From Eledone cirrhosa (lineage: Eukaryota): a stretch of 64,000 bases of DNA. Location of the stretch: contig OZ024743.1 in the NCBI GenBank assembly GCA_964016885.1, positions 369,396,001-369,460,000 of the forward strand. The letters are read 5' to 3'. Below the pieces are notes generated by a model. The model saw only the letters and a program-made list of their open reading frames with translations, had not been told where the DNA came from and ran no database searches. Of this stretch, positions 26,002 to 35,262 are shown in pieces (position 1 is the first letter of the stretch; the number at the start of each line of letters is the position of its first letter). A program made the translations under genes and the position numbers.

Positions 26002-26582
26002 TATAAGTATGTACACGTACATACATATATGCATACACATGTACAGTAGTATGTATATATATATATATACATACATGCACACATATATATATGTACGTAT
26101 GGATTCACCGAACATTTATTATAATGCTCGGTGTGTTTGTAAAGAAACATCCCGTATTAAGCCGTAGTGTCTAGCAACCATCGTTGCTCGTTTGTCCAAC
26201 ACTGACAAAGGAACGCTGTACTAGTTTCAAGCTTATTAGCTATCGTCAGCAACGTATACCTTCCTGCCAGATTGTTGAATGTATATACTTACCTTATGCA
26301 TATTAACGGCTGAGTAGCCCAATTTGCATATCGAGTGGGTTAATCGGCCAGGTGCACCGAAAACGATAAACGGAAAAAATGAAACAAAATTTCATTTCCC
26401 ACTCTTAGTACGGCTGTTACTTAAATATAAGTATGTACACGTACATACATATATGCATACAGACGTACAGTAGTATGTATATATATATATATACATACAT
26501 GCACACATATATATATGTACGTATGGATTCACCAAACATTTATTATAATGCTCGGTGTGTTTGTAAACAAACATCCCGTATT
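26002..26582 (-). mobile_element. Retrozyme-like element, 424-bp unit (about 1.4 tandem copies)
   Basis: 26002-26158 repeats at 26426-26582. The unit contains a hammerhead (26213-26255) and an octamer (26322-26329). Embedded in (TA)n. Confidence 0.75.
26213..26255 (-). ncRNA. Minimal type I hammerhead ribozyme
   Basis: Minus strand reads acgttg-CTGACGA-t agct aata agct t-GAAA-CTAG-TA^-cagcgt. Stem I is 6 bp with one G:U, stem III is palindromic, cleavage triplet is GUA, and there is a U:U at the base of stem II. Confidence 0.85.
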
Positions 26583-26672
26583 TATATTTATATATATGTA
26601 TATTTATATATATATGTATATTTATATATATATATATATATTTATATATATATATATATATTTATATATATA

Positions 26673-27198
26673 CTAGCAGTAAAGCCCGGCGTTGCTCGGG
26701 GTCGCTCAGTAGCTGTGTTAAAGTTACAATGTTAAGTTTCTTTTTTGGCTTAAAAACTGTAGTGTCTACTGTGCAGACTTGCATGTGGTGTTTTTGATTA
26801 ATATTCCCTCAACCAACAATATGCCTTATGAAGTTAAGAAAACATAACGATAACCCGAATGTTATAACAAAATAGGATGCTGAGGATAAAAACTGCACTG
26901 GTTATTTATTAACAAAGATCGAAAATGTAAACACTGCAACGCAGAGAAAAACAACGTAAGACGCTCAATGTAAACAGAACAAAGGGAAATAACTCGTCAC
27001 TTACGCTCAAAAATCGATACATTAGATTCAATTTCGTCACATAGGGTGGGTCAATTTGAAATATTTTTTTCCGATGTCTTCGCTAGGGCTCAATGTACAA
27101 GTATAGCAATTTCGGTGCAATTCCGTCAGAGATTCGAAGAGGAGATGTGTGCCAAAAATCGATAGACAGACAGACAACCATAGCTTTATATATATAGA
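26673..27198 (-). mobile_element. Non-autonomous Helitron
   Basis: Minus strand begins A|TCTATATATATAAAG and ends with hairpin CCCGAGCAACGCCGGG, 8 nt, then CTAG|T. These are canonical Helitron termini and an A/T target. Confidence 0.85.
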
Positions 27199-27806
27199 TA
27201 TATATATTTATATATATTTATATATATATATATATTTATATATATATATTTATATATATATATATATTTATATATATATATATATTTATATATATATATA
27301 TATTTATATATATATATATATTTATATATATATATATATATATATTTATATATATATTTATATATATATATATATATATATTTATATATATATTTATATA
27401 TATATATATATTTATATATATATTTATATATATATATATATTTATATATATATTTATATATATATTTATATATATATATTTATATATATATATATAAATA
27501 TATATTTATATTTAAAAACAAATAACGAAACAAAATTAAATTTCGTTTCGGTTCTAACTCACTTTTGTATGACTGACGCTTAAACAATTAAGTTAAAAGT
27601 GTACATCTACATATGTATACGGAAATATTAGTATGCATATAAATACACACATGTATACATATGTACATGTACTGAGTTTTTCACTGGACACTTTACTGTG
27701 AGTGTCCAGCTAGTCTGTATGTAACCAAACAGACAAACCGGGTTGTAGAGTCATACGGGTTTTCAAGGAAACACATTTCCTCTATTCTCCAGAGAGCCAG
27801 ACAGGA

Positions 27807-27849
27807 ATATTGGACTAGTTTCGATGTTATTACATCTCATCAGCAATAT
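27807..27849 (-). ncRNA. Minimal type I hammerhead ribozyme (unit 1)
   Basis: Minus strand reads atattg-CTGATGA-gatgt aata acatc-GAAA-CTAG-TC^-caatat. Core and stems I and II are perfect. GUC cleavage predicted between 27813 and 27812. Confidence 0.93.
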
Positions 27850-28277
27850 ATACCCATCTTCCGGCTTCTCTAGAGAATCGTAAAAGCACATATCGTTATA
27901 TGCTTTTTCTATGAAAATTAGTAGTGGGCAGACTAATTTGCATAGAACGTGAGTCATTGTACGCACCGGTTCAGCGGAAACGATAAAAACAAATAACAAA
28001 ACGAAATTAAATTTCGTTTCGCTTCTAACTCACTTTTGTATGACTGACGCTTAAACAATTAAGTTAAAAGTGTACATCTACATATGTATACTGAAATATT
28101 AGTATGCATATAAATACACACATGTATACATATGTACATGTACTGAGTTTTTCACTGGACACTTTACTGTGAGTGTCCACCTAGTCTGTATGTAACCAAA
28201 CAGACAAACCGGGTTTTAGAGTCATACGGGTTTTCAAGGAAACACATTTCCTCTATTCTCCAGAGAGCCAGACAAGA

Positions 28278-28320
28278 ATATTGGACTAGTTTCGATATTA
28301 TTACATCTCATCAGCAATAT
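28278..28320 (-). ncRNA. Minimal type I hammerhead ribozyme (unit 2)
   Basis: Same as unit 1 except one stem II change that turns G-C into G:U. Confidence 0.92.
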
Positions 28321-33268: not shown

Positions 33269-33320
33269 CCGAGGAAGATGTTTTTTGACGTTAACACCCC
33301 AGTGAGAAAATTTGATCCGG

Positions 33321-33429
33321 AATTATTGCCAGTGTCCGACGAACCTGCAGTTCCAGAATCAGACAGATCCATACAATGATCCTGTCTCGAGCTATCTGCC
33401 GGTGAAACAATTGTAACACGCAATAAATT
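33321..33429 (+). ncRNA. Type I hammerhead variant (U4C core, about 60-nt stem II) in the inverted Penelope pLTR
   Basis: tattgc-ca-gtgt-CCGACGA-acc.gcag...ctgc.ggt-GAAA-CAATTG-TA^-acac-gcaata. Bulged stem I, palindromic stem III, predicted cut after 33415. Confidence 0.78.
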
Positions 33430-33480
33430 GAGTCCAGATGCATCACTGATTTTTCATTTTATATTATATTATATATATGT

Positions 33481-33668
33481 GGACGGTGGATTGGCAGTAT
33501 CGGTAGAGGGTCGGACGCCATGCTTTCCAGCATAGTTACGTCCCTTTGTGATCTGAGTTCAAATCCCGCCGAGGTTGACTTTGCCTTTCATCCTTACGGG
33601 GTCGATAAAATAAAGTACCAGTAATGCACTGGATAATTGCTGGCCTTGTGCCTAAAGTAGAAACAATT
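33481..33668 (+). mobile_element. SINE family A, full length
   Basis: tRNA-like head, B box GAGTTCAAATCCC and conserved gcctttcatccttacggggtcgataaaataaagtaccag. (TA)n on both flanks. Confidence 0.9.
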
Positions 33669-34489
33669 ATATATATATATATATATATATATATATATAT
33701 ATATATATATATAGTATTAGGTGGCCGTGTGTGTACGCGGTCAGCTGCATGCAGATAGGTGAGTGTGCGTGTGCGAGCGCATGTACTCGGGTGAAGTCCT
33801 GCTTTCGAGGTTTTTTGTGGTGATTCTTGGCACTTCCCTCGTAATCATTTTCACTTCTCATTGTTACAGATGATCCATTTTTTGTCTCTCAGTTACCACT
33901 TTCTTCAAAAAGGAATCGTTTTCACGTTTAAGGAAGGAATCAGAGATGGAAATCCATTTGGTGAGGTTGGTTTCATTCAATTGATGGGGAACCGAAACAT
34001 TGACCCTGCTGATCTAACCAAGTATATGCACATGGTTTTCAAAACTTGATTTGGATATCTGGAGAATATCTGTGATCTTTCTGGTTGTAAGATGGGAGTT
34101 GGTGTCGACTAACTCCATCACTTGGTCACTATTAAACAAGCCAAAAGCAGTTTCTGTATGAGCAAGACATGGTCACCTGAACTGGCTTATCTCACAACAG
34201 GACAACTCATTTAACCCATGTTAGCGTGGATAAATGGATGTTAATCGGTGATGATGAGGATGATGATATATTTATATTCTCCTTGCATACATTCCACTCA
34301 TATCAAGAGAATGTCTTCACATGCTACTGTGATGTCTTCACGTTTTCTAAGGCAATATTTGGTCGTAATTTAAAAAAAAATATTTACTCCTGTATCTACA
34401 TATTGATATTTGCTCAGTTTCACATGATCCTGCATAGGGTGAAAGCAGAAATTGTCTGCTTAATCTTTTAATCTGAACTAATAATATAT

Positions 34490-35262
34490 ATATGAAATAC
34501 GTGAAGTTGTATATCTGGCAACATATGGTATGTTTATAAATAAACATTTTGAAAGCCTTCCGCCATGAATTTGAAAACTGACAGCATAGTGCCATCTAGT
34601 GTGTTCCAACAGCAACTAAGTACGGGCAACCAGTGAGGATGACATCATCATTTCTGACTTTTGTCGTTATCAAACTGGTGCTGCCGACCGCTTACTGTTG
34701 GAACATAATATAAACTAAAACAAGTAGTTTCGAAACCTCTTTACATTGGCTGATCAGCCAAATTTGCATATAGAGTTACAGCTGGCTCAGCCAAAGATAT
34801 TATATATATATATGTTTACAAATGAATCAAACATTATTCTTAATGTTTGATATAACCCATACGTATATATATATGTGTGTGTACGTGTGCATACTTACAT
34901 TTATGTATCAGTGAGAAATAAAATTCTAATTTTATTTTTAATATTCAGTAAGGCCAGCCGTAACTCGCTCTGTATGCAAATGAGCTACTCAGCTGATGTG
35001 TACTTGAGAAAATACTATATATTTTCAACCGTTCATGAAGGGTAATGATCCAGAAACATGTTGATTGTTCCTCAAAGCCAATGTTGAACAAACAGGTGAC
35101 AATTGGTCACCAGCACAGCACAGCTTCAAATCGGGCCGTTTGTTTACAAACAAATCGAACATGTTCAATATAACCCATATGTACATATGTATGTGTATAT
35201 ATGTGTGTGTGTATGTATGTATATATATATATATATGTGTGTACGTGTGCATACTTACATTA
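34490..35262. mobile_element. Decayed head-to-head relatives of the 424-bp retrozyme unit
   Basis: 34813-35262 (+, 328-bp period) aligns by eye to the reverse complement of 26002-26582, with an octamer at 34974-34981 and a broken hammerhead at 35026-35067 (TTCATGA...GAAA-CATG-TT). 34490-34795 is an oppositely oriented piece with an octamer at 34762-34769. Confidence 0.65.

Follow-up and report, generated by a model that had tools for sequence, protein, structure and literature searches.

The window, a 64,000-nt stretch of the Eledone cirrhosa genome, contains three hammerhead-bearing tandem repeat units, F1 (424 bp), F2 (471 bp) and F3, together with a fourth and decayed unit, a decayed Penelope-like element (PLE) and an open reading frame of an abundant LINE (Table 1). 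In the general unit layout, a type I hammerhead ribozyme sits in a long stem and is followed by hairpins A, B and C and then by a tail that has two fixed insertion ends. The region upstream of the ribozyme carries an extended octamer, with a YCAS core 8 nt further on and a TATA-like box at 32-35 nt past the octamer. The tandem units of the superfamily are 311-471 bp long with a GC content of 34-37%; they have no LTR and are non-coding, with only microsatellite-derived frames overlapping the window units. Tandem arrays occur in the window (F2, two hammerheads) and elsewhere in the genome (F1, F2 and F4). At the gathering score, Rfam gave no match within the window, and a metagenome scan returned 117 matches, one with hammerhead-like stems and none recognizable as this retrozyme superfamily.

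All nine coordinates quoted in an earlier, sequence-only reading of this DNA contain the motifs assigned to them. The octamer-to-hammerhead distance, given there as 45-90 nt, measures 72 nt to the core in F1, 92 nt in F2 and 79 nt in the F3 family consensus. Further, the proposed order of octamer, hammerhead and two hairpins does not hold in the third unit, where the intact hairpin C at 34826-34851 belongs only to an upstream partial copy. Relative to 30 aligned genomic copies, the window copy's own hairpin C carries a 10-nt deletion, and a 28-nt deletion has taken away stem I's 5′ arm together with the first three bases of the core; the family's hammerhead is intact and the window copy's is broken. 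The fourth unit aligns with a score of 244, versus a maximum of 117 over 100 shuffles. This unit, the inverted F2 arm and the decayed PLE had been missed by the earlier reading.

Table 1. Features of the retrozyme locus (window positions; hammerhead activity and promoter function are predictions).
Feature	Position	Strand	Remarks
F1 retrozyme, ~1.4 copies of 424-bp unit	26002..26581	-	ends at the family's 'short' 3′ end beside (TA)n
F1 octamer	26322..26329	-	follows a T, as do the octamers of host U6/U6atac/MRP promoters
F1 PSE-like core (YCAG)	26308..26313	-	8 nt past octamer
F1 TATA-like box	26282..26287	-	34 nt past octamer
F1 type I hammerhead, stem I extended	26195..26279	-	core 26219-26249 intact
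F1 hairpin A	26173..26188	-	blind covariation not significant
F1 hairpin B	26134..26149	-	one mismatch here; intact at 26558-26573
F1 hairpin C	26106..26133	-	covariation and consensus folding (RNAalifold)
F1 'tail' segment between two insertion ends	26377..26432	-	hairpin E 26419-26432, hairpin D 26377-26397
F2 retrozyme, 2.4 copies of 471-bp unit	27513..28651	-	two intact hammerheads, 'long' end
F2 hairpins	27684..27781	-	A 27766-27781, B 27713-27734, C 27684-27709
F2 hammerhead, stem I extended	27784..27878	-	type I core 27813-27843; second core 28284-28314; both intact
F2 TATA-like box	27897-27902	-	
F2 PSE-like core, degenerate	27922-27927	-	
F2 octamer	27936..27943	-	second copy 28407-28414
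Inverted 5′-truncated F2 arm	28654..28874	+	terminates at 'short' end
Decayed Penelope-like element	29650..33453	-	fragments of RT and GIY-YIG, a long 3′ UTR and a terminal piece in inverted orientation; a neighbor of the units
Fourth superfamily unit, decayed, F12-like	34463..34795	-	octamer 34762-34769, hammerhead degenerate
F3, older copy	34813..35262	+	includes upstream partial copy
F3 octamer	34974-34981	+	
F3 PSE-like core	34989-34994	+	
F3 TATA-like box	35016-35021	+	
F3 hammerhead remnant	35035..35062	+	predicted inactive
F3 hairpins	35095..35169	+	A 35095-35111, B 35138-35155, deleted C 35154-35169
Near-intact ORF of abundant RTE-like LINE	36382-39879		

A pattern search of the genome found 61,767 hammerhead cores (370 for a reversed control pattern), and 30,288 cores with an octamer 65-95 nt upstream (0 for the control). 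In all, some 60,000 cores, divided among at least seven deep lineages, are present in the genome, and the superfamily comprises 14 consensus sequences with pairwise identities of 37-97%. Judged by their sequences, the three window units represent related families within a single superfamily of non-LTR retrozymes, an already known class. The superfamily proposed earlier is supported and, with its 14 consensus sequences, larger than the three units. The consensuses of these units are 73% (unit 1 versus 3), 63% (1 versus 2) and 54% (2 versus 3) identical, and the units, described as strongly differing, are indeed divergent but not independent. Octamer-bearing cores exceed chance, but the 311-bp family, whose cores number at least 13,226, lacks the octamer, and some F1c copies have it mutated; F11-F13 were retrieved with a pattern requiring the octamer. 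Among 1,149 F1 candidates, 45 matches were scored, of which 44 are near full length and 97-100% identical; F2 is a very young family.

The hammerhead is of canonical type I, as defined in the cited part of PMC4209133, with a helix I of about 6 bp, a helix II of 4 bp and a short palindromic helix III; in F1, the predicted cut falls between 26219 and 26218. An alignment made without structure contains 22 compensatory pairs versus 4.0 expected and 29 broken ones versus 58.7 expected (8 consensus pairs; F4, F11 and F13 excluded because of unreliable alignment). In particular, the hammerhead stems have 13 compensatory pairs versus 1.9 expected and hairpin C has 5 versus 0.85 (P=0.0004), whereas hairpin A has 1 versus 2.0, which is not significant, and is absent from the RNAalifold consensus fold. 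Of the two hairpins said to covary, the second is therefore upheld and the first is not. The loop of hairpin A varies from 3 to 5 nt, shifting the alignment register, and by eye and post hoc its arms in F1c, F1b and F3 change via G-U intermediates without being broken; it is weakened in two copies. Two helices extend the earlier set: the long extension of stem I and hairpin B, between A and C. The octamer was also considered as an arm of a conserved RNA hairpin and rejected.

The ends of the insertions carry a distinctive signature. Of 42 inverted insertions, 33 combine a long end with a short one (F1 17/23, F2 16/19), and none is long-long or short-short; by this structure, the F2 array of the window and its inverted arm are a single Penelope-type insertion. 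TA-like sequence follows 62 of 95 F1 ends and 44 of 54 F2 ends, the insertions lying mostly beside (TA)n, and the tails measure about 60 nt (F1), 74 nt (F2) and 33 nt (F4). The ribozyme cut site was ruled out as the position of 5′ starts or insertion ends: 5′ starts are spread across the unit, and 0 of 101 (F1) and about 2 of 65 (F2) lie within 10 nt after the cut. Because 5′ ends do not pile up there, cleavage leaves no genomic trace. Two reverse transcriptase (RT) start sites and a tail are known for the Poseidon PLE of Anolis (PMC11167929), and the two-end pattern of the retrozymes matches both. Mobilization by a Penelope-type RT is strongly supported by these sequence patterns. The suggestion that hairpins could be recognition signals for such an enzyme is supported as regards mobilization, and hairpins A and C are no more than possible signals: the ends of units 1 and 2 lie ~100-170 nt past hairpin C and adjoin two other hairpins. 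The same data make two other readings highly improbable, satellite DNA that DNA-level recombination has amplified, and SINE-like elements mobilized by the RTE-like LINE; long tandem arrays do exist and a near-intact LINE frame lies nearby, but the units are dispersed over many chromosomes, form inverted 5′-truncated arms with two fixed internal ends pairing long with short, and have no poly(A) tail in their sequences. These readings are largely refuted for dispersal, though unequal crossover may extend arrays locally.

Candidate helpers for a Penelope-type mobilization are present in the genome. PLE identity was derived from motifs and tblastn; Pfam gave no match on four PLE fragments. The adjacency of the units to PLE frames was discarded as evidence of partnership, these being chance neighbors across TA tracts. 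Young PLE copies elsewhere are 98-99% identical with open frames of 743-749 aa; for example, the 749-aa frame of L212 contains, by eye, DKT, RWK-like and CxCX5C motifs, with GIY-YIG at the C terminus, the Hydra-clade motif set being taken from the cited part of PMC8557442. These young Hydra-like PLEs, classed by motifs, are candidate helpers and the best candidate family; other PLE types are also present.

The promoters of the host's own snRNA genes provide the reference for the upstream motifs. Nine of the 12 distinct host U6 upstream sequences have the octamer or a one-mismatch variant between -76 and -78, and the top U6atac match and MRP also carry the extended octamer at about -77; lower-ranked matches without an upstream octamer (U6 8/8, U6atac 7/8) were treated as pseudogenes. 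In these promoters the octamer at -77 is combined with a TATA box at -30, with an octamer-to-TATA spacing of 38-40 in five of the Pol III promoters. In the host's U1/U2/U4/U5 genes, transcribed by Pol II, a YCAG-type core lies at about -57 (-55 to -58 across 15 independent promoters) and is accompanied by a TATA-like box; an exact octamer occurs in 1 of 21 U1/U2 (at -399), 0 of 6 U5 and 0 of 8 U4 upstream sequences. These counts rule out the octamer as their distal element. By position, it is in this host a proximal element of U6, U6atac and MRP, typical of Pol III genes, and the earlier identification of it as the snRNA-gene distal element does not apply here.

In most retrozyme families the octamer stands together with a YCAG core and a TATA-like box that keep the host's Pol II spacing. 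For a PSE model trained solely on host Pol II snRNA promoters, octamer+8 is the best upstream site in 10 of the 11 retrozyme sequences with an octamer (rank 1/764 in the F1a consensus); F2 fails, with a score of -8.0 and rank 124/802. Retrozyme scores of 2.5-14.8 are mostly below those of host genes (6.4-26.6 by leave-one-out), and scores are negative in three further hammerhead families that lack this architecture. In the octamer-less F4 the best site takes the equivalent position, and the AATT box of the host is found at -33 relative to the core, which is the plain host Pol II layout. At family offsets, the TATA box is present for 124 of 152 family octamers and the YCAS core for 126, compared with 1 and 6 of 55 background octamers. 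The families share ancestry, and common promoter motifs are not independent evidence. It is likely, from this agreement with host promoters, that the retrozymes carry an internal snRNA-type promoter; the view that they are self-promoted thus gains from the motif match and loses the universality of its octamer.

The polymerase could differ. The retrozymes might instead use a U6-type Pol III promoter made up of octamer and TATA, and T-runs would at times be read through, yielding templates that contain the promoter. This would suit the extended octamer, found among host genes only in Pol III genes, the match of the F3 and MRP sequences over 14 nt, the TATA-like box retained by all octamer families, and the lack of a good PSE core in F2. 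This reading is nonetheless unlikely: the retrozyme spacing of 32-35 is 4-6 nt short of the host's tight spacing, T5-T8 runs lie inside F1, F2 and F11 before the next promoter and are routinely spanned by inserts, and F4 shows the Pol II layout. It is also improbable that the motifs are ancestral relics or RNA-level sequence, with passive transcription from host or Penelope promoters and selection on the RNA fold only. Descent relates the families, F2 without its core and some F1c copies without the octamer still amplified, and pairing between the octamer and an arm downstream of it is possible in single sequences; however, that hairpin is not recovered as a consensus, the three motifs keep fixed spacing though linkers have diverged to 40-55% identity, co-occurrence far exceeds that of background octamers, and F4 independently displays the host's other promoter layout.

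Matching snRNA promoter elements and a Penelope two-site tail together make it likely that the units are self-transcribed, self-cutting RNAs copied by a Penelope-like enzyme. With a probability of about 0.68, we propose that they are non-LTR retrozymes with an internal snRNA-type promoter, predicted self-cutting, and Penelope-like insertion into (TA)n. RNA polymerase II and SNAPc, assisted by an octamer-binding factor, would start ~57 nt past the YCAS core, leaving 7-27 nt to the hammerhead core (7 in F1a, 14 in F3, 20 in F4 and about 27 in F2), and the transcript would read through into the next unit. Tandem hammerheads would then cleave, probably as dimers via palindromic stem III, to unit-length RNA, and the monomers are possibly circularized. 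A Penelope-like protein would bind uncut multimers or circles, for which hairpins B/C and tail hairpins D/E are candidate signals, and start cDNA at two tail sites, predicted at +217/+277 (F1) and +227/+301 (F2) from the cut site; the two starts would yield one long-ended and one short-ended inverted arm. The promoter being part of the copied RNA, each insert would carry it along. A more tentative proposal, which we hold as possible though doubtful, is that the promoter is chimeric, with the host's U6/MRP proximal octamer fused to U1/U2 PSE-TATA geometry and one lineage keeping the plain U1/U2 layout, that SNAPc capture explains high animal-retrozyme expression, and that the covarying B/C hairpins and the tail hairpins form the signal of a Hydra-clade RT.

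The newt satellite 2 promoter reportedly uses an octamer. As cited in PMC2220036 (Coats et al. 1994), that satellite is a tandem hammerhead repeat whose internal promoter is of the Pol II snRNA type; here, the host is an invertebrate and the promoter grammar its own, with an octamer that lies 8 nt from a PSE-like core and copies the U6/MRP element. The retrozymes resemble Pol III genes in their octamer and Pol II genes in their YCAG core and TATA-like spacing; no examined host gene combines the octamer with a Pol II core, and the retrozyme promoter is internal and travels with the repeat. As in the animal non-LTR retrozymes of the cited passages of PMC7229834 and bioRxiv 10.64898/2026.07.22.740005, the units are tandem and non-coding, 311-471 bp long and 34-37% GC, with a canonical type I hammerhead, a palindromic stem III, tens of thousands of copies and co-occurring PLEs. 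PLE mobilization is proposed in those passages (Cervera & de la Pena 2020; Li, Clavereau & Pollet 2026), which do not describe the promoter elements, conserved 3′ hairpin domain and insertion-end signature present here. The PLE pLTR homology of the Li et al. retrozymes, as given in the cited passages, was not seen here in two PLE families (the window's and an AT-rich one), whose 3′ ends lack homology to F1-F3. A pair of internal 3′ ends separated by a tail, inverted 5′-truncated arms, (TA)n targets and a hammerhead upstream of a protein-binding region (here a candidate) are shared with the PLE pLTR/tail of the cited parts of PMC11167929 and PMC8557442; unlike PLEs, the retrozymes have no ORF, and their tails compare with 30-40 nt reported (PMC11167929).

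The class itself is known; new here, from sequence comparison, are the host-like promoter elements in retrozymes and the long-plus-short tail signature. The latter is direct genomic evidence for Penelope-type mobilization, which the cited passages of the retrozyme literature only propose. Further, the host's U6/U6atac/MRP promoters and distinct U1-U5 promoters are now defined, which is useful for guide-RNA expression in this lineage. How animal retrozymes are transcribed, and by what they are copied, are questions that date back to the studies of the newt satellite. With predicted transcription starts, two RT start sites placed to the base in each family, and a young PLE as candidate helper, both become bench-testable. 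If the chimeric promoter is real, then together with newt satellite 2 it would make capture of the SNAPc pathway a general reason for the high expression of animal retrozymes.

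The hammerhead-bearing units form a real, structured retrozyme superfamily within an already known class, the non-LTR retrozymes (Cervera & de la Pena, PMC7229834; Li et al. 2026). In the AT-rich, 3.0 Gb genome of Eledone cirrhosa, a minimal hammerhead pattern has 61,767 matches, versus 370 for its reversed control, and 30,288 of these carry the snRNA-promoter-type octamer 65-95 nt upstream (control, 0). The best-scoring genomic copies of the 424-bp unit (F1) and the 471-bp unit (F2) are 97-100% identical to the window copies; those of the 328-bp unit (F3) are 70-89% identical, except for one 30-nt match and the copy in the window itself. 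With T barred directly after the octamer, a pattern matched 4,482 times versus 28 and brought out families F11, F12 and F13, while F4, a 311-bp family without the octamer, has at least 13,226 cores. Moreover, 14 consensus sequences, 37-97% identical to one another, have a predicted fold in which the core sits within an extended stem I and hairpins A, B and C come after it (B being absent from one, F12a). The shared architecture reflects common descent, not convergence, because the consensus identities are 73% (F1-F3), 63% (F1-F2) and 54% (F2-F3).

The other hammerhead families F6-F8 of the host genome lack this architecture. F6 (genomic pieces L153:7368-7374, L155, L216 and L227) is a short hammerhead element, often found as inverted pairs in (TA)n, that shares its stem II sequence with F4 and has neither promoter nor hairpin domain. 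In F11 (L265, L415, L262), the octamer-plus-core block upstream of the ribozyme is doubled or tripled. Our literature search, with subscription papers, Repbase and supplements outside its scope, found no published description of the superfamily or of the host promoter layout; the words octamer, octopus and cephalopod are absent from the main text of Cervera & de la Pena (PMC7229834), as far as that text was available, and the comparison extended to parts of PMC4209133, PMC6155905, PMC2837043, PMC11340601 and PMC1761439.

Within the window, the motifs described by the sequence-only reading are present at all nine coordinates it quoted. Its common order of octamer, hammerhead and two hairpins holds for F1 and F2, where 72 and 92 nt, respectively, separate the end of the octamer from the core, but not for F3 (plus strand), which has no intact core. 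An alignment with 30 genomic copies shows two deletions in F3: one of 28 nt, which takes out stem I's 5′ arm together with core bases one to three, and one of 10 nt in its own hairpin C. The hairpin C cited for it lies in a partial copy further upstream. The two intact regions (z of -3.6 for F1 and -6.2 for F2) fold more stably than shuffled sequences, and an Rfam search of the window missed their hammerheads. Five of the window's nine exact octamers lie inside units. The LINE copies are labelled RTE-like on the look of their protein.

Features of the window
Feature	Position	Strand	Remark
Intact type I hammerhead core	26219-26249	minus	F1
Intact type I hammerhead cores, two	27813-27843; 28284-28314	minus	F2
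Superfamily member, fourth	34463-34795	minus	decayed, F12-like; head-to-head with F3
Penelope-like element	29650-33453	minus	decayed; very long RY-rich 3′ UTR, inverted terminal copy
Young LINE copies, presumably RTE-like	36382-39879 (minus); 24646-25734; 54478-57951; 59875-61590		one has an open frame of 1,165 aa
Low-complexity open frame, 366 aa	18784-19884	plus	looks like a host exon
Tandem repeat, 21.6 copies of a 61-bp unit	48021-49340		99% identity

Covariation was counted over eight consensus pairs in sequence-only alignments of 11 of the 14 consensuses (F4, F11 and F13 were left out); a single reference from each clade served to define the helices, and the null placed an equal number of changes randomly 20,000 times. 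Across all helices, there were 22 compensatory pairs versus 4.0 expected and 29 broken pairs versus 58.7 expected; stems I and II contributed 13 compensatory pairs (1.9 expected), and extended stem I had 6 broken pairs (11.9 expected; P=0.005). The two hairpins originally proposed to covary fared differently: hairpin C did (5 compensatory pairs versus 0.85; P=0.0004), but hairpin A did not significantly (1 compensatory versus 2.0, 15 broken versus 13.9, over the eight pairs). Hairpin B gave a weak signal (P=0.04 and 0.09). On 15 real copies, RNAalifold found 8 of 47 pairs compensated; it recovered stem II, extended stem I and hairpins B and C, but not hairpin A. In 8 of 11 consensuses, a perfect stem with 6 bp or more begins 24-40 nt past the cut (shuffle probability 0.04-0.30 each). 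Hairpin A is probable but unproven, as its variable loop length shifts the register.

The octamer had been taken as the distal element of snRNA genes, which the host contradicts: the 400 bp upstream contain an exact octamer in only 1 of 21 distinct U1/U2 sequences (position -399), and in none of 6 for U5 or 8 for U4. Instead, three elements recur in 15 independent host Pol II snRNA promoters: a YCAG-type core at -55 to -58, with an AATT box around -90 and a TATA-like box around -30. The octamer, exact or with one mismatch, sits at -76 to -78 in the MRP gene, the best U6atac match and 9 of the 12 distinct sequences upstream of U6 (three loci). A T precedes it, KAG mostly follows, and a TATA comes 38-40 nt later, at about -30. 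The octamer is absent upstream of three top U6 sequences, 8 lower U6 matches, 7 lower U6atac matches and RNase P. The U6, U6atac and MRP promoters (L311, L312, L313, L372, L380) do not match the U1/U2-type core in their upstream 80 nt. The RNase P RNA gene (L371, upstream of 1501) has a U1/U2-type YCAGT core without octamer, which suggests a Pol II-type promoter. U6 and U6atac pseudogenes (L373, L374, L403, L404) directly follow (TA)n or (TG)n tracts, and were possibly inserted by the same Penelope-like machinery.

In 10 of 11 sequences, the retrozymes carry the extended octamer of host U6/U6atac/MRP, a YCAS core 8 nt later and a TATA-like box 32-35 nt past the octamer. A PSE model trained on host Pol II snRNA promoters alone, searching the -100 to -55 region, put its best site at octamer+8, to the base, in 10 of the 11 sequences with an octamer (P against background 0.0002-0.04 for each), evidence that is not independent across families, F11-F13 having been picked on the octamer. 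Scores are mostly below those of host genes (leave-one-out 6.4-26.6); the octamer-less F4 scores 12.4 at its own core, with AATT at the host distance. At fixed offsets, the YCAS core accompanies 126 of 152 family octamers versus 6 of 55 background octamers, and the TATA-like box 124 of 152 versus 1 of 55. The promoter pattern alone has 28,971 matches versus 0, and the 100 matches listed all look, by eye, like these families. Overall, the predicted internal snRNA-type promoter is well supported by host-matched motifs; F2 fails the model, and the abundant F4 has no octamer. In insects, the choice of polymerase goes with spacing differences of a few bases; here, the shorter octamer-to-TATA spacing and the T5-T8 runs inside units would favour Pol II read-through. 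Newt satellite 2 has an snRNA-type Pol II promoter, as cited in PMC2220036. In metagenome contig L427:339-445 (minus), an octamer lies upstream of a canonical-looking type I hammerhead of unrelated sequence.

Penelope-like elements are abundant in the host genome (58,430 and 71,800 first-look candidates), and their Hydra clade is reported to carry a hammerhead (Craig et al.). No clear hammerhead was found at the 3′ end of the decayed window element. An AT-rich family with 98-99% identical copies, 743-749-aa frames and Hydra-clade motifs is only a candidate retrozyme partner, because the hammerhead at its 3′ end is a different one and no homology between that end and the units is visible.

Mapping of the copy ends covered 78 F1 loci and 52 F2 loci. 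Relative to the cut site, F1 ends cluster at +211 to +222 (27/95) and +269 to +278 (42/95), and F2 ends at +219 to +232 (27/54) and +297 to +302 (22/54); TA repeats follow most ends (62/95 and 44/54). Inverted insertions pair one long with one short end in 17 of 23 F1 and 16 of 19 F2 cases, never two like ends, the remainder having one or two atypical ends. F4 has two ends, near +137 and +170, in 6 of 7. The 5′ starts are scattered, with no pile-up found at the ribozyme cut site. According to Frangieh et al. (PMC11167929), a Penelope-like RT starts at two internal sites, and the interval between them becomes the genomic tail; the enzyme favours AT-rich targets and has no need of ribozyme cleavage. 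The F2 array of the window together with its inverted arm makes up one Penelope-type insertion of this kind. The sequence-only reading proposed that the hairpins could be recognition signals for a Penelope RT. The F1 and F2 ends lie some 100-170 nt past hairpin C, which means that neither A nor C marks an RT start site directly. In both families, short ends map to the loop of one small hairpin and long ends to just past another. Penelope-type mobilisation of these retrozymes is read directly from their insertion ends.
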